The notes under the pieces were generated by a model that saw only the letters and a program-made list of their open reading frames with translations, was not told the DNA's origin and did not search any database. Below are positions 29,136-64,000 of a stretch of DNA of 64,000 nt, piece after piece (the first letter of the stretch is position 1; each line of letters starts with the position of its first letter). A program made the translations under genes and the position numbers. The DNA is taken from NCBI RefSeq assembly GCF_050920415.1, contig NZ_CP169309.1. One strand, 5' to 3'. This DNA comes from Escherichia coli. Its GTDB lineage: Bacteria > Pseudomonadota > Gammaproteobacteria > Enterobacterales > Enterobacteriaceae.

Positions 29136-30571
29136 TTTGCCTCCGATGCCAGTTCGTCAAAGACGTCTTTGCCAAGGGAGCATTCCGGGCACAGGAAGTT
29201 ATCCGGGACTTCACTCCACGGCGTTCCTGGCGCAACGTCCTGCATTGGCTCGCCTTTTGCCGGATCGTAAATCCACTGGCAGACGCTGCACTGCATCCGT
29301 GGGCCGAGGTCAGCCGTCGTGGTGGCACAGGTTTCTTCTTTAACCACCGTATTCACCGTGCTTTGCGGCAGCGGCGAAAGCGCCCACTGACGGGCAATTT
29401 CACGACCGTGTTCACGGCATAATTCCAGTGCATCCTGGTCCGGTCGCCATTTGGCTTTCAGGCTAAGCGACATTTCGAAACCCGCATCTTGCAGGCGCGT
29501 GGAAAGACGATCCACGGCACCGCCGCTCCAGCCGTGAGAGCCGAAAGCACTGGCGCGTTTGTTACGGAAGCGTAATCCGGTCATCTCCTCCACCAGCCCG
29601 GCGATTTTCGGCATCATCACGTTATTCATCGTCGAAGTGCCAACCAGCACGCCTTTTGAGCGGAAGACATTGGTCAAGATTTCGTTTTTATCGCTTCGGG
29701 CGACGTTGAAAATTTTCACCGCCACGCGCGGGTCGGTTTCCGCAATCCCCTGGGCGATAGCGTCAGCCATCATGCGGGTGTTATTCGACATGGTGTCGTA
29801 GAAAATGGTGATTCTGTCTTCCTGATAATCCGCCGCCCATTTCAGGTACAGCTCGACAATTTGCGTCGGGTTATCGCGCCATACCACGCCGTGAGAGGTG
29901 GCAATCATATCGACCGGCAAGTTAAAGCCCAGGATCTCGGTGATTTTCGGCGTTACCAGGCGGCTGAACGGTGTCAGGATATTGGCGTAGTAACGCTGAC
30001 ACTGCTCGAAAAGCTCGGTCTGATCCACTTCATCGTTGAAGAGATGCTCGTCGCAGTAGTGCTGACCGAAAGCATCGTTACTGAACAGCACCGCGTCGCC
30101 CGTCAGGTAAGTCATCATGCTGTCCGGCCAGTGCAGCATTGGCGTTTCGACAAAAATGAGCTGTTTGCCGTTGCCGATATCCAGCGTGTCACCAGTTTTC
30201 ACCACATTAAAATTCCACTCCGGATGATGGTGATGACCATTTATTGAGTCGATAGCGTTGGCAGTACAATAGATCGGCGTATCGGGAATTTGCGCCATCA
30301 GTTCGGTCAGCGCCCCGGCGTGGTCCTCTTCAGCATGGTTAATCACGATGTAATCGATATCCGCCAGATCGATTTCATTACGCAGGTTCTGCACAAATTC
30401 GCGGCTGAATTTATGGTCGACGGTGTCGATCAGCACGTTTTTTTCTTCACGAATGAGGTAGCTGTTGTAGCTGCTGCCGCGCAGCGTTTTATATTCCGTG
30501 CCGTGAAAATCACGCACTTCCCAGTCACGTTGACCAACCCAATGAATGTTATTTTTCACCACAATAGACAT
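29132..30571 (-). CDS. norV: Anaerobic nitric oxide reductase flavorubredoxin
   Basis: 479-aa ORF; metallo-beta-lactamase plus flavodoxin domains and C-terminal rubredoxin CxxC...CPxC. Confidence 0.95.
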
Positions 30572-30617
30572 AGCAACCTCAATTTATTCAGCGTGTTCTA
30601 AAAAGATGTCTTGCTAA

Positions 30618-30634
30618 TTGCAGATTGCGTGCCA
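30618..30634 (-). promoter_or_regulatory. sigma54 promoter of norVW: TGGCAC-gcaat-CTGCA on minus strand
   Basis: Plus strand TTGCAGATTGCGTGCCAG; GG-N10-GC spacing as consensus. Confidence 0.8.
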
Positions 30635-30689
30635 GTTTTTTATCTGATTGTTTTTACTATACAAATAAAATTATGCTCATTAATGAGTA

Positions 30690-30745
30690 GTCAAAATGAC
30701 TATCAATCAAATGGTCGATATGACAATATCTATAGTCAAATTGAC
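30690..30745. promoter_or_regulatory. Three NorR enhancer sites (GT-N7-AC inverted repeats)
   Basis: GTCAaaaTGAC (30690-30700), GTCgatatGAC (30714-30724), GTCAaatTGAC (30735-30745); centres 24 and 21 bp apart, upstream of the norV sigma54 promoter and overlapping the norR promoter. Confidence 0.8.
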
Positions 30746-30757
30746 AGTGAGGCAAAG

Positions 30758-32272
30758 ATGAGTTTTTCCGTTGATGTGCTGGCGAATATCGCCATCGAAT
30801 TGCAGCGTGGGATTGGTCATCAGGACCGTTTTCAGCGCCTGATCACCACGCTGCGTCAGGTGCTAGAGTGCGATGCGTCTGCGTTGCTACGTTACGACTC
30901 GCGGCAGTTTATTCCGCTTGCCATCGACGGGCTGGCGAAGGATGTTCTCGGTAGACGCTTTGCGCTGGAAGGGCATCCACGGCTGGAAGCGATTGCCCGC
31001 GCCGGGGACGTGGTGCGCTTTCCCGCAGACAGCGAATTGCCCGATCCCTATGACGGTTTGATTCCAGGGCAGGAGAGTCTGAAGGTTCACGCCTGTGTTG
31101 GTCTGCCCTTATTTGCCGGGCAAAACCTGATCGGCGCACTGACGCTCGATGGGATGCAGCCCGATCAGTTCGATGTTTTCAGCGACGAAGAGTTACGGCT
31201 GATTGCTGCGCTGGCGGCGGGAGCGTTAAGCAATGCGTTGCTGATTGAACAACTGGAAAGCCAGAATATGCTGCCAGGCGATGCCACGCCGTTTGAAGCG
31301 GTGAAACAGACGCAGATGATCGGCCTGTCGCCAGGCATGACGCAATTGAAAAAACAGATTGAGATTGTGGCGGCGTCCGATCTCAACGTCCTAATCAGTG
31401 GTGAGACGGGAACGGGTAAGGAATTGGTGGCGAAAGCGATTCATGAAGCCTCGCCGCGGGCGGTGAATCCGTTGGTCTATCTCAACTGTGCCGCACTGCC
31501 GGAAAGTGTGGCGGAAAGTGAGTTGTTCGGGCACGTGAAAGGGGCGTTTACTGGCGCTATCAGTAACCGCAGCGGGAAGTTTGAAATGGCGGATAACGGC
31601 ACGCTGTTTCTGGATGAGATCGGCGAGTTGTCGTTGGCATTGCAGGCCAAGCTGCTGAGGGTGTTGCAGTATGGCGATATTCAGCGCGTTGGCGATGACC
31701 GCAGTTTGCGGGTCGATGTGCGCGTGCTGGCGGCGACTAACCGCGACTTGCGCGAAGAGGTGCTGGCAGGGCGATTTCGTGCTGACTTGTTTCATCGCCT
31801 GAGTGTGTTTCCGCTTTTGGTGCCGCCGCTGCGTGAGCGGGGTGATGACGTCATTCTTCTGGCGGGGTATTTCTGTGAGCAGTGTCGTTTGCGGCTGGGG
31901 CTCTCCCGCGTGGTATTAAGTGCCGGGGCGCGGAATTTATTGCAACACTATAGTTTTCCGGGGAACGTGCGCGAACTGGAACATGCTATTCATCGGGCGG
32001 TGGTGCTGGCGAGAGCCACCCGCAGCGGCGATGAAGTGATTCTTGAAGCGCAACATTTTGCTTTTCCTGAGGTGACGTTGCCGCCGCCAGAAGCGGCGGC
32101 GGTGCCCGTTGTTAAGCAAAACCTGCGTGAAGCGACAGAAGCGTTCCAGCGTGAAACTATTCGCCAGGCGCTGGCACAAAATCATCACAACTGGGCTGCC
32201 AGCGCACGGATGCTGGAAACCGACGTCGCCAACCTGCATCGGCTGGCGAAACGTCTGGGGCTGAAGGATTAA
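30758..32272 (+). CDS. norR: NO-responsive sigma54-dependent transcriptional activator NorR
   Basis: 504 aa from [12 protein letters not shown]; GAF domain, AAA+ GETGTGKE and GAFTGA motifs, C-terminal HTH. Confidence 0.93.
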
Positions 32273-35696: not shown

Positions 35697-37234
<1,538 letters not shown>

Positions 37235-37274
37235 TTATTGTTTTATTACCAAATGGCAACCTAATCTAATCAGA

Positions 37275-37338
37275 TTGAAAGATTTAAAAGTGTTATTTTG
37301 ATCTCAAAATGAAAGATAAATATTTTAATTTGAAAGTT
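37275..37338. promoter_or_regulatory. srl promoter region: three direct TGAAAG-containing repeats plus a CRP-like site (TGTTA-N6-TCTCA, 37291-37306)
   Basis: TTGAAAGAT (37275-37283), ATGAAAGAT (37309-37317), TTGAAAGTT (37330-37338); candidate DeoR-family (SrlR) direct-repeat operators. Confidence 0.4.
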
Positions 37339-37471
37339 TGTATAAAAGGATAGTGAGGCGGATGAGTTGAGTTATGTAAAGTCTGTATCGGGCAGTGACT
37401 ACCGCTTCCTTGTGCAGGGCGGGATGCTTTACCATACTTGCCCCTGGTTGAATTTGTTAAATGGACCCCTC

Positions 37472-58483: not shown

Positions 58484-59548
58484 TTACTTAATGAATGGGC
58501 GGGTCAGCAGACCGACAGGTCCAGTGGTGTACCAGCGACGGTTGCCGCGACTGCGTGAGTCGCGCCCAACGGCCTGCGTCAGGCGGTCGAGGATAATGGC
58601 GAGGATCACAATCCCGACGCCGCCAACGGTGGCAAGCCCCATATCCAGACGACCGATACCGCGAAGTACCATCTGACCCAGCCCGCCGACGGCAATCATC
58701 GAGGCGATGACCACCATAGAAAGGGCCAGCATCAGCGTCTGGTTAACGCCCGCCATTATGGTCGGCATCGCCAGCGGTAACTGAACTTTGAACAGCATTT
58801 GACGCGGGCTGGCACCGAATGAGCGCGAGGCTTCAATTAAATCCGCCGGAACCTGATTAATACCAAGAATCGTCAGACGGATAATCGGCGGCAGAGCAAA
58901 GATTATAGTCACCACTACGCCCGGCACGTTGCCGATACCAAACAGCATGACGATTGGCACCAGATAAACAAACGCTGGCGTGGTCTGCATGGCATCAAGC
59001 AGTGGACGAATAATTTTCGCCGCTCGCGGACTTCTCGCCAGCCAGATCCCCAACGGCAAACCTATGACGATACAGAACAGCAGGGCGGTTAACACCAGCG
59101 CCAGGGTAACCATGGCCTGCGACCAGGCACCGATTGCGCCGATGGCAATCAGCGAAACCAGAGTCGCCACGCCCATTCCGACCCCGGAAATCTGCCAGGC
59201 GATGAGAGCGAAAACGATAATCGCCACCGGCGCGGGCATACCCAGCAGCAATTGCTGGAAACCGTTGAGGATGTAATCAACCGGAACGCGCACGCCCTGA
59301 AAGACGGGACGAAAATGGGTAACGACCCAGTCGATCCCTTCAGTGACCCAACTGTCGAGCGGGATTAGCGTTTTATGGAACGGATCGAGAATATTAAAAT
59401 GCTCGACGTTTGGCGCAGGCGTACTGGTCAGCCAGTCAGCGCCACCGCCGTCAGTCGGTGCAGTCGCCGGTGTACCCCAGGCGTCTGCAGATTGTGCAGC
59501 ACTGTCCGCCGCTGGCGTGGTATCCCACGGATTATTTTGATCAGCCAT
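58484..59548 (-). CDS. proW: Glycine betaine/proline ABC transporter permease
   Basis: 354-aa membrane ORF; 8-bp overlap with proV end. Confidence 0.95.
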
Positions 59549-60743
59549 TATTTACCCCCTCACGATCTAAAGCGCGCAGCAGCATTCCTTTCGAAATGAT
59601 GCCGACATACTGTTGGTCCTCGTCGACCACGGGCACCGCACAGGGCGCTTGTCCGACATGAGAGAGCAACTCGCTAAGAGGCGTTTGCGCATCGACTGCT
59701 AATGGCGCATCAATCAGCGCCGCATCAAGACCTTGCTGCTGCGTTAACGCGGTTTTAAGCGAATCGATAGACACAGCGCCGACAAACTTATTACCGCGTT
59801 CGATAACGTAGCCATATTCGCGGTCTTCATCCTGCAATAATTTCAATGCCGAACGTGGGCCGAAGCCAGGGGTTTTACGAATTAAGCCATTCGGTGTCCG
59901 ACGGGCAATATCTTTCGCACTGAATACCTGACTAATATCAACGCCACGGAAGAAGGTACGGACATAATCATTCGCCGGATTATTGAGAATTTCATCCGGT
60001 GTGCCAACCTGCACCACTTCACCATTTTGCATAATGGCAATTCGGTCGCCAATACGCATAGCTTCGTCGAGATCGTGGGAAATAAAGACAATGGTACGTT
60101 GATGTTTCGCCTGTAATTTTACCAGCTCATCCTGCATCTCAGTGCGAATTAATGGATCAAGCGCCGAGAAGGCTTCGTCCATTAATAATATATCCGGATT
60201 AATTGCTAATGCGCGGGCTAATCCGACGCGTTGACGCATCCCACCAGAGAGTTCGTCCGGGTAGCTATGGGCATAATTTTCCAGCCCGACCTGACGCAGT
60301 GCATCAAGGGCTTTTTCCCGGCGTTCTTCGGCATTAATTCCGGCCAATTCCATACCGAATGCAGTATTGTCCAGCACGGTCATATGCGGCATTAAGGCAA
60401 AGGACTGGAAGACCATCGCAATCTTTTTTCTGCGCACCTCACGGAGTTCGGCGTCGGATATTTTGGCAATATCCACACCATCAATCAGCACTTGCCCGCG
60501 GGTGGGTTCAATCAGGCGATTGAGAAGGCGTACCATTGTGGATTTACCCGAACCGGATAATCCCATGATGACAAATATCTCGCCTTCTTCAATGGCCAGA
60601 CTGGCGTCTTTTACGCCAAGCGATAGCCCGGTTTTTTCCAGAATTTGTTCTTTTGAAAGTCCTTGTTCGATATATTTGAACGCTCGCTGAGGATGCTCGC
60701 CAAATATTTTATAGAGATTTTTAATTTCTAATTTAATTGCCAT
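59541..60743 (-). CDS. proV: Glycine betaine/proline ABC transporter ATP-binding protein with tandem CBS domains
   Basis: 400-aa ORF; Walker [13 protein letters not shown] signature LSGGMRQR. Confidence 0.96.
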
Positions 60744-60811
60744 GCAATAGAAAGATTCCTGTTATTTGTTTATGTCGATACATTACCCAATGGAAATAGT
60801 CACTTTTTTCT

Positions 60812-60839
60812 ACCCTAACATACTGAGAATCTGAGGCAA
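60812..60839 (-). promoter_or_regulatory. proU P2 promoter (-35 TTGCCT, 16-bp spacer, -10 TAGGGT)
   Basis: Minus-strand TTGCCTcagattctcagtatgtTAGGGT about 70 bp upstream of the proV ATG; AT-rich region further upstream. Confidence 0.75.
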
Positions 60840-61098
60840 CCCCTGATGGCAAATGTGGCATGAATATTGATGCGAGCAAATCGCCGGAATTTCCCATGAT
60901 ATAAGGGCTGAGAGCAAATCGAGAAAGTTGATATTTTTTTGTCATAGATAGCGAAAAAACGCCTGAATATTGTGGTTTCAGGCGAATAATGCAACAGAGT
61001 ATCAGTGTAGATCACCACAAAATATTTGCGTGATAAAAAGCTATTTGGCGGGAATTATTTCCCCTGCTGAAGTTGGTGAAATTTTGAAAAATAACCGG

Positions 61099-62067
<969 letters not shown>

Positions 62068-64000
62068 TTAAAGCGCGCAGGAGACGCAGCCTTCAATTTC
62101 AGTACCTTCCAGCGCCATCTGACGCAGGCGGATGTAGTAGAGCGTTTTGATACCTTTGCGCCAGGCGTAAATCTGCGCTTTGTTGATATCGCGAGTGGTG
62201 GCGGTATCGGGGAAAAACAGTGTCAGCGACAGTCCTTGATCGACATGGCGAGTCGCTTCGGCGTAGGTGTCGATGATCTTTTCTGCGCCGATTTCGTAAG
62301 CGTCCTGATACAGCGCCAGATTCTCGTTAGTCATAAACGGGGCAGGGTAGTAAACGCGTCCTGTTTTGCCTTCTTTGCGTATCTCTACTTTCGCCACAAT
62401 CGGATGAATACTCGACGTGGCATGGTTGATATAAGAGATGGAACCGGTTGGCGGCACCGCCTGGAGATTTTGGTTGTATATGCCATAGCGCATCACGTCG
62501 TCGCGCAGTTGCGCCCACATTTCGCGGGTAGGTAACGTGATGCTGCTACGAGCAAACAACTCGCCAACTTTCGCCGTTTTCGGTTGCCAGTTACCTTGCA
62601 GATATTGGCTAAAATATTCACCGCTGGCATAGCGTGACTGTTTGAACCCGGCGAAGGTTTCACCGCGTTCGCGCGCCAGCAACATTGAGGTACGCAGCGC
62701 GTGCCAGGTGATGGTGTAGAAATAGAGATTGGTGAAATCCAGTGCTTCCGGCGAACCATAGGCGATGCCTTCTCGCGCCAGATAACCGTGTAAATTCATC
62801 TGCCCCAGACCGATAGCGTGTGAGGCGGCATTTCCGGCTTCGATGGACGGCACGCTGCGAATATGACTCATATCTGACACCGCAGTTAAACCGCGCACGG
62901 CAGTCTCTACCGTGCGGGCAAAGTCGGGGGAATCCATGGTGTGGGCAATATTCAACGAACCTAAATTGCAGGAAATATCATGGCCTGTGCGGGCATAGTC
63001 GAGATTCTCGTCATACTCTGAGGCGCTGTTAATCTGTAAAATTTCTGAGCAGAGATTGCTCATATTTATACGCCCGGCAATAGGGTTAGCACGGTTAACC
63101 GTGTCTTCATACATGATGTAGGGATAGCCGGATTCAAACTGGATCTCCGCCAGCCGCTGGAAGAAATCACGGGCGTTGATGTATTTTTTACGGATGCGTT
63201 CATCGGCTACCAGTTCGGCATAGTGTTCGCTGATGGCGATATCGGCAAACGGCTTGCCATAAACTCGCTCAACGTCATAGGGCGAAAACAGCGCCATCTG
63301 CGCATTCTCTTTTGCCAGATGGAAGGTGATATCCGGGATAACCACGCCCAGCGACAGTGTTTTAATGCGGATTTTCTCGTCGGCATTTTCCCGTTTCGTA
63401 TCGAGAAAACGCAGAATATCGGGATGATGGGCATGTAAATAGACTGCGCCAGCACCCTGACGCGCGCCGAGCTGGTTGGCATAAGAAAATGCGTCCTCCA
63501 GCATTTTCATCACCGGAATCACGCCAGAGGATTGATTTTCAATACGTTTAATTGGTGCGCCCGCTTCCCTCAGATTCGACAGCAAAAATGCCACGCCGCC
63601 GCCGCGTTTCGACAGTTGTAGTGCGGAATTTACTGCCCGGCCAATCGACTCCATATTGTCTTCAATACGCAGCAAAAAACAGGAAACCAGTTCGCCGCGC
63701 TGCCGCTTACCGCAGTTGAGGAATGTCGGTGTTGCAGGCTGAAAGCGTCCTGACAGCATCTCATCGGTCAGTTGCGTAGCCAGTGTTTTATCGCCTTGTG
63801 CCAGCGTCAGCGCCACCATCGTGACTCGATCGGCAAAATCTTCCAGATAACGCTTACCGTCGAATGTCTTCAACGTATAGCTGGTGTAAAACTTCCATGC
63901 TCCGAGGAATGTCTGAAAACGAAAACCGCTGGCGTGTGCGTGGGCAAACAGTGTAATGACAAAATCGCGAGAGTAGCGATTAAGGACGCTTTCATCATAG
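62068..64000 (-). CDS. nrdE: Class Ib ribonucleotide reductase alpha subunit, C-terminal ~640 aa; N-terminus lies beyond the window end
   Basis: Minus-strand frame stays open to position 64000; catalytic motifs NLCSEI and C-terminal CxxC (EGCVSCAL). Confidence 0.93.

Follow-up and report, generated by a model that had tools for sequence, protein, structure and literature searches.

Introduction

The P2 promoter of the proU (proVWX) operon is already known and is among the best-studied osmoregulated promoters silenced by H-NS. In Escherichia coli K-12, it is sigma70-dependent, lies 60 bp upstream of proV, has a non-consensus -10 element with three G:C pairs, and is stimulated by K-glutamate in a purified system (PMC10656529). 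Its suboptimal 16-bp spacer has been tied to supercoiling and osmotic control (PMC3937201; PMC4770202), and it has been proposed that spacer lengths other than 17 bp make initiation sensitive to DNA twist (PMC3937201). Compared by description only, the osmoregulated opuA promoter of B. subtilis, with its 18-bp spacer, shares this non-17-bp spacing, but its sequence and organism are unrelated and no H-NS is present. A second, cryptic, sigmaS-dependent promoter, P1, is found 250 bp upstream of proV in K-12, and its transcripts undergo Rho-dependent termination (PMC10656529).

H-NS has been described on both sides of the K-12 promoter. Nucleation takes place near +25 and +130, in the DRE, at two high-affinity sites of identical sequence separated by about 10 helical turns (PMC5418058; PMC10656529). 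According to the coordinates compiled in PMC10656529, most of the region from -198 to +30 is protected by H-NS in DNase I footprinting in vitro, with five footprints spread from -198 to -44. The URE of K-12 is curved, binds H-NS in vitro and cooperates with the DRE, and the URE-DRE contact detected by 3C is weaker on osmotic shock. A stereospecific positioning of the upstream curved element is required (PMC10656529). A note in Supplementary Data 1A of the same paper nevertheless states that a preference of H-NS for the upstream curved region is not corroborated by studies in vivo.

We have analysed a 64-kb stretch of E. coli DNA, hereafter the window, in which an initial annotation had recognized P2 and an AT-rich region upstream of it. 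The value of this finding is that of a positive control, as a promoter of weak consensus was correctly named from the letters alone, without tools. Comparison between species moreover provides two small leads, an upstream conserved block and a polymorphism in an H-NS site.

Materials and Methods

K-12 features were transferred to the window using a primer sequence from Supplementary Data 1A of Rashid et al. (2023; PMC10656529) as anchor, together with a pairwise alignment. The K-12 coordinates are second-hand, being taken from that paper, whose annotation credits footprints and starts to Lucht 1994 and Dattananda 1991. In Supplementary Data 1A, the -35 element is at 1860-1865, the -10 element at 1882-1887, the sigma70 start at 1894/1895 (last A of AGAAAAAAG) and the sigmaS start at 1704/1705. 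Sequence, orthology with K-12, conservation, composition and predicted curvature are directly established here.

Species loci were collected from one genome per species by searching for the first 18 proV codons written as degenerate bases, independently of the promoter. Curvature was predicted with an approximate wedge model, using the parameters of Bolshoy 1991, and checked on phased A-tracts. Conservation of the hairpin described below was assessed by pair counts on its columns.

Results and Discussion

The nrdF-proV intergenic region

The region designated by the initial annotation (60744-61098) is exactly the whole nrdF-proV intergenic region, of 355 nt, delimited by the following genes:

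62058-61099, minus strand: nrdF coding sequence, whose stop codon is the upstream limit of the spacer
59541..60743, minus strand: proV coding sequence, 400 aa, first gene of proVWX (ORF list; ATG at 60743)

On the minus strand, the order is thus the end of nrdF, the spacer (61098-60744), proV, proW and proX. Of 5426 complete E. coli genomes, 5420 contain a match to a 651-nt query, invariably chromosomal and located between nrdF and proV, with at least 99% identity in only 3 of the 5420; in a RefSeq E. coli genome 100% identical over the query, the same gene names are annotated. When the spacer is compared with that of K-12 MG1655 by pairwise alignment, no difference is seen between positions -91 and +22, counted from the P2 start. 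Over 60600-61110, 22 differences are found, 12 of which are clustered just 3' of the nrdF stop. Locus and gene order are the same as in K-12, as are the -35, the 16-bp spacer, the -10 and the start context of P2, the -10 of P1, the hairpin and H-NS site 2. The window differs from K-12 by an A-to-G change at +24, inside H-NS site 1, and by two single-nucleotide insertions, one at +44 in the 5' UTR and the other in the upstream A-tract.

On these grounds, the site is almost certainly P2, the osmotically induced promoter that depends on sigma70 and serves the proVWX (proU) operon, which encodes a glycine betaine/proline ABC transporter. The promoter is in its usual place after nrdF, and the copy is an ordinary one.

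No RNA family was matched by an Rfam scan of 59400-62200 (E≤1). A 70-aa ORF overlapping the promoter (60945-60733) was discarded: its ATG is due to a T-to-A change specific to the window, and K-12 has a frameshift relative to it.

The P2 core promoter

The core promoter and the proV leader comprise the following elements:

60834..60839, minus strand: P2 -35 element, TTGCCT (sequence; aligns to the K-12 '-35 promoter sequence')
60833-60818, minus strand: 16-nt P2 spacer, CAGATTCTCAGTATGT (sequence)
60812..60817, minus strand: P2 -10 element, TAGGGT (aligns to the K-12 '-10 promoter sequence')
60819..60820, minus strand: TG of a putative extended -10 motif (TGn), with TGT preceding TAGGGT (TGN in 107 of 107 loci)
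60811..60842, minus strand: near-invariant core island of 32 nt, spacer included, GGGTTGCCTCAGATTCTCAGTATGTTAGGGTA (per-column conservation)
60804, minus strand: inferred P2 (sigma70) start, last A of AGAAAAAAG (transferred by alignment from the K-12 TSS annotation)
60744..60803, with the start at 60804, minus strand: 5' UTR of proV, 61 nt including the putative start
60760-60757, minus strand: Shine-Dalgarno sequence AGGA, in the proV 5' UTR (ACAGGAA conserved across species)
60780..60837, minus strand: homologue of the K-12 IHF-protected site, -33 to +25 (mapped by alignment)

TTGCCT-16-TAGGGT is present on the minus strand at 60812-60839, as had been proposed, where it occupies the same bases as the annotated -35 and -10 of K-12. 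It occurs once in the 64 kb, and none of 100 dinucleotide-preserving shuffles holds the pattern. The two hexamers together match the sigma70 consensus at 7 of 12 positions. The -10 element, with its three G:C pairs, contributes only 3 of 6 matches to TATAAT; for this reason, a sigma70 consensus scan of 60400-61400 reports no promoter, P2 included, as expected for P2.

The initial annotation had called for a comparison with mapped starts. The K-12 features fall on the window at 60839-60834 (-35), 60817-60812 (-10), 60804 (P2 start) and 60996/60995 (P1 start), so that the mapped sigma70 start of K-12 fits these hexamers and not another place; the start in the window is itself deduced by alignment. 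It precedes the proV ATG by 61 nt, compared to 60 nt in K-12, owing to the 1-nt insertion in the UTR. More generally, we infer the start site, the binding of factors and the osmotic regulation in the strain of the window from its orthology with the systems described in the K-12 and Salmonella literature. This also applies to IHF, for which the protected region of K-12 is that of Khodr 2015, as annotated in Supplementary Data 1A (PMC10656529).

The proV 5' UTR (60744-60804) is unusually unstructured, with a minimum free energy of -2.5 kcal/mol (z +1.98), 200 of 200 shuffles folding as well or better.

Conservation of P2 in Enterobacterales

Among the 110 species loci with enough upstream DNA, TTG[CT]CN-16-TAGGGT is kept in 107, which span Escherichia, Citrobacter, Salmonella, Klebsiella, Enterobacter, Serratia, Yersinia, Pectobacterium, Morganella, Photorhabdus and others; the three exceptions are Moellerella and two Providencia species. 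The -35 element is TTGTCT in 76 loci, TTGTCA in 18, TTGCCT in 12, which include all Escherichia loci, and TTGCCC in one. Between the TG and TAGGGT, the base is free (T in 87 loci, G in 10, C in 6, A in 4). An invariant TG followed by a free base is the signature of an extended -10 motif, and the TG upstream of TAGGGT probably acts as such. In Salmonella enterica, the TAGGGT -10, the TG two bases upstream and the 16-bp spacer are shared with the window, together with the AGAAAAAGG start context, whereas the -35 is TTGTCT instead of TTGCCT.

When 99 species loci are aligned, conservation in the core island (60842-60811) is mostly at least 0.9, versus 0.1-0.6 in the flanks, and the bases of the P2 spacer are conserved as strongly as the hexamers. 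A perfect palindrome, CTCAGA-N-TCTGAG, is found in the spacer of 28 of 100 species (60822-60834 in the window); in Escherichia it has one mismatch, CTCAGATTCTCAG, and it is imperfect too in Citrobacter, Yersinia and Serratia.

The retention, across an order, of so weak a -10 together with a 16-bp spacer and a TG argues that the weakness of the promoter is selected, in agreement with the proposals that spacer length and twist give osmotic and supercoiling sensitivity. The preservation of this 'bad' -10, of the spacing and of the TG fits the idea that weakness is the regulated feature. RNA polymerase would thus use a deliberately poor promoter, made of TTGCCT, a suboptimal 16-bp spacer and TAGGGT with its three G:C pairs, probably with the help of the TGn motif. 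Upon hyperosmotic shock, the rise in K-glutamate and supercoiling would favour the formation of the open complex.

P1 and a terminator-like hairpin in the upstream stretch

The upstream stretch contains two elements that were absent from the initial annotation, P1 and a terminator-like hairpin:

61004..61010, minus strand: -10 element CTACACT of the sigmaS-dependent proU P1, with C just upstream (K-12 annotation by alignment)
60996/60995, minus strand: inferred P1 start, 252-253 nt before the ATG (K-12 sigmaS TSS by alignment)
60954..60984, minus strand: terminator-like hairpin, CGCCUGAA-9 nt-UUCAGGCG, then U6 (folding, covariation)

P1 is located 192 nt upstream of P2, and its CTACACT is kept in Escherichia, Citrobacter, Salmonella, Kosakonia, Yokenella and Trabulsiella.

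The hairpin (60984-60954) has an 8-bp stem and a 9-nt loop (delta-G -11.2 kcal/mol, z about -3) and begins 114 nt past the stop codon of nrdF and only 11 nt beyond the start of P1, so that P1 transcripts would carry it at their 5' end. Compensatory changes are observed in Enterobacteriaceae: at least 6 of the 8 pairs are kept in 39 of 54 rows, at pair 2, A-U replaces G-C in 13 of the 54, and at pair 3, C-G is replaced by G-C or U-A in 7. The hairpin is also shared, with compensatory changes, by S. enterica. RNAalifold gives no consensus on all 54 P1-region sequences, because the Klebsiella-type sequences disrupt it, and a terminator scan of 60400-61400 does not report the hairpin, since its 9-nt loop exceeds 8 nt. 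The sole call of that scan, on the plus strand inside nrdF (61206-61220), is unconvincing. With its stem, loop and U-tract, the 60984-60954 hairpin has the features of an intrinsic terminator and most likely ends nrdHIEF transcription.

Downstream of P1, the sense strand between P1 and P2 (60850-61000) is C-rich and G-poor across 52 species loci, C exceeding G in 85-100% of them for most 40-nt windows from P1 to the conserved block described below. Such a leader is rut-like and would suit the Rho-dependent termination reported for P1 transcripts. Besides a cryptic sigmaS promoter, with Rho stopping its transcripts, the upstream half of the spacer would harbour a hairpin that is likely to close the nrdHIEF transcription unit.

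The presence of a second promoter 192 nt upstream could be taken to mean that TTGCCT and TAGGGT are a chance pair of hexamers, proV being transcribed from P1 or by read-through from nrdHIEF. The poor match of the pair to the sigma70 consensus (7/12) and its omission by the consensus scan go in the same direction. However, zero occurrences are expected by chance, the bases are identical to those of an experimentally annotated K-12 promoter, and the element is near-invariant in 107 species while its flanks diverge. Furthermore, P1 is reported to be cryptic through Rho-dependent termination, and a hairpin followed by a U-tract stands between nrdF and P2. We consider a chance pair extremely improbable, and P2 is retained as the promoter of proV.

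AT content, curvature and H-NS elements on both sides of P2

The elements related to H-NS in K-12 are placed as follows:

60851..61034, minus strand: URE, -229 to -47 in K-12 (K-12 annotation by alignment)
61003-60982, 60979-60951, 60945-60915, 60908-60880 and 60869-60848, minus strand: homologues of five H-NS DNase I footprints of Lucht 1994, in the URE (alignment)
60627..60844, minus strand: DRE, -40 to +177 in K-12 (K-12 annotation by alignment)
60775..60784, plus strand: homologue of H-NS high-affinity site 1 (+21 to +30), TCGATACATT (one mismatch from K-12 TCGATATATT)
60667..60676, plus strand: H-NS high-affinity site 2 (+129 to +138), exact TCGATATATT, inside proV (sequence match)

The DNA upstream of P2 had been described as very AT-rich and typical of H-NS nucleation, and a profile of AT content or curvature had been suggested as a check. 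This profile does show low GC, and predicted curvature peaks on both sides of the promoter. The GC content of 60744-61098 is 0.38, within the lowest 0.36% of all 355-nt windows, compared with 0.526 for the window as a whole; for the part that precedes the -35 (60840-61098), it is 0.394, within the lowest 1.7% of windows of the same length. With a GC content of 39% versus 52.6%, the upstream region is AT-rich, but 'very' overstates it, as the nrdF-proV spacer is the seventh lowest in GC among 25 crude intergenic gaps of the window. The AT-richest stretch is 60703-60822, with a GC content of 0.258, the second lowest among 120-nt stretches of the window. Most of it is located past the P2 start, where it covers the 5' UTR and the initial codons of proV. 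The GC content of the URE and DRE is 0.38 and 0.349, respectively, versus 0.526 for the window.

More extreme AT-rich spots are found elsewhere, at 37217-37366, a divergent intergenic gap, and at 30530-30760 (GC 0.21-0.28 over 120-150 nt).

Predicted curvature reaches at least the 99th percentile at 60920-60960 (-116 to -156), 61080-61110 and 60620-60660 (+145 to +185). The two peaks upstream of P2 are located within the upstream curved region described in the literature and the third is at the downstream end of the DRE, so that AT-rich DNA predicted to be curved flanks the promoter on both sides.

The link made with H-NS nucleation has therefore to be amended. The upstream region does align with in vitro footprints of K-12 and is predicted to be curved, but the mapped nucleation sites and the AT minimum (26% GC) are downstream of P2. 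In the extreme, the AT-rich DNA upstream of P2 could be ordinary intergenic DNA, made up of the nrdHIEF terminator, P1 and a C-rich, G-poor Rho-loading leader, the nucleation region being located downstream of P2. Besides the rank of the spacer among the gaps and the position of the AT minimum and of both high-affinity sites, this would account for the excess of C over G from P1 to the conserved block (85-100% of 52 loci for most 40-nt windows), for the conserved hairpin and P1 -10 in this stretch, and for the in vivo studies that, according to Supplementary Data 1A (PMC10656529), do not corroborate preferential upstream binding. It accommodates less easily the five in vitro footprints from -198 to -44 in K-12, the cooperation of URE and DRE, whose 3C contact is weakened by osmotic shock, and the predicted curvature of the URE, at or above the 99th percentile. 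We regard it as possible, although rather doubtful, and the two readings of the upstream region are not mutually exclusive.

We favour a scheme in which both sides of P2 contribute. At low osmolarity, H-NS would nucleate at the two 10-bp sites that follow the start, at +21 to +30 and at +129 to +138, then spread and bridge to the curved, AT-rich upstream element, which would silence P2. IHF would bind across the core promoter.

A natural variant of H-NS site 1

The mismatch in site 1 is an A-to-G change at 60781 (sense strand, minus; +24), in the A/T core of the site. The 68-nt allele extending from the -35 to site 1 is present in 1898 of 5396 E. coli genomes (about 35%), including B2 strains, of which Nissle 1917 and the type strain ATCC 11775 are examples. 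As the other Escherichia species and Citrobacter keep an A, the G at +24 is probably derived. In S. enterica, site 1 is AACATATCGA. Rashid et al. disrupted H-NS binding by mutating site 1 together with other positions of the DRE (PMC10656529). The natural change could plausibly weaken H-NS nucleation, and the strength of silencing may differ here.

A conserved block upstream of P2

Outside the core, comparison between species reveals a further conserved element:

60893..60910, minus strand: conserved block of 18 nt (-106 to -89), CAGCCCTTATATCATGGG (species conservation)

Its consensus, CAGCCCTTATnTCAyGGG, is found in 49 of 100 species loci. The block is preceded by a conserved AAAAAATATC, with AAAAAAATATC at 60940-60930, and it overlaps the homologue of the K-12 H-NS footprint from -104 to -76. 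It lies upstream of the -35, and the distance from its start to the first base of this hexamer is always 70 or 71 nt, although the DNA in between is not conserved. S. enterica, for instance, shares the block and the P1 -10 with the window but differs from it between block and core. This fixed distance may relate to the need for a stereospecific positioning of the upstream element.

None of the promoter, IHF, CRP or Fis readings of the block fits, the IHF, CRP and Fis consensus being judged by eye. On the antisense strand, an extended -10 (TGATATAAG) was rejected, as its would-be -12 base varies between T, G and A and its -7 base is G. The -10 readings on the sense strand fail in the species with TTATCTCA. 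When the core and block sequences were looked for in the literature, PMC5418058 was the sole match, through the core sequence.

The conserved P2 spacer and this block could be sites for a specific regulator other than RNA polymerase, H-NS and IHF. A spacer as conserved as the hexamers, bearing a palindrome that is perfect in 28 of 100 species, would be in line with such a protein, as would the GC-rich ends of the block, atypical of H-NS sites, and its fixed distance to the promoter. We nevertheless judge it very unlikely: proU responds to K-glutamate in a purified system without any trans-acting factor (PMC10656529), Escherichia, Citrobacter, Yersinia and Serratia have only an imperfect palindrome, and the block matches by eye no IHF, CRP or Fis consensus. 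In K-12, moreover, IHF protection extends from -33 to +25 and the block is covered by an H-NS footprint, and the stereospecific positioning of the upstream curved element could by itself explain the fixed spacing. A broader possibility is that the block is either a site for a specific factor or a rut or insulator element acting on P1 transcripts and on read-through RNA from nrd, and that the A-to-G change in site 1 tunes the basal silencing of proU, which would add a layer to the classic promoter. We consider this combination unlikely, and P2 under H-NS control is the reading that we retain.

A hairpin just after the nrdF stop (61064-61045) was discarded, being no better than shuffles in the window sequence (z -0.33). 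The first 40 nt or so after this stop (61058-61102) are hypervariable and hold 12 of the 22 differences from K-12; in Salmonella and Klebsiella, longer inverted repeats are found just after the nrdF stop.
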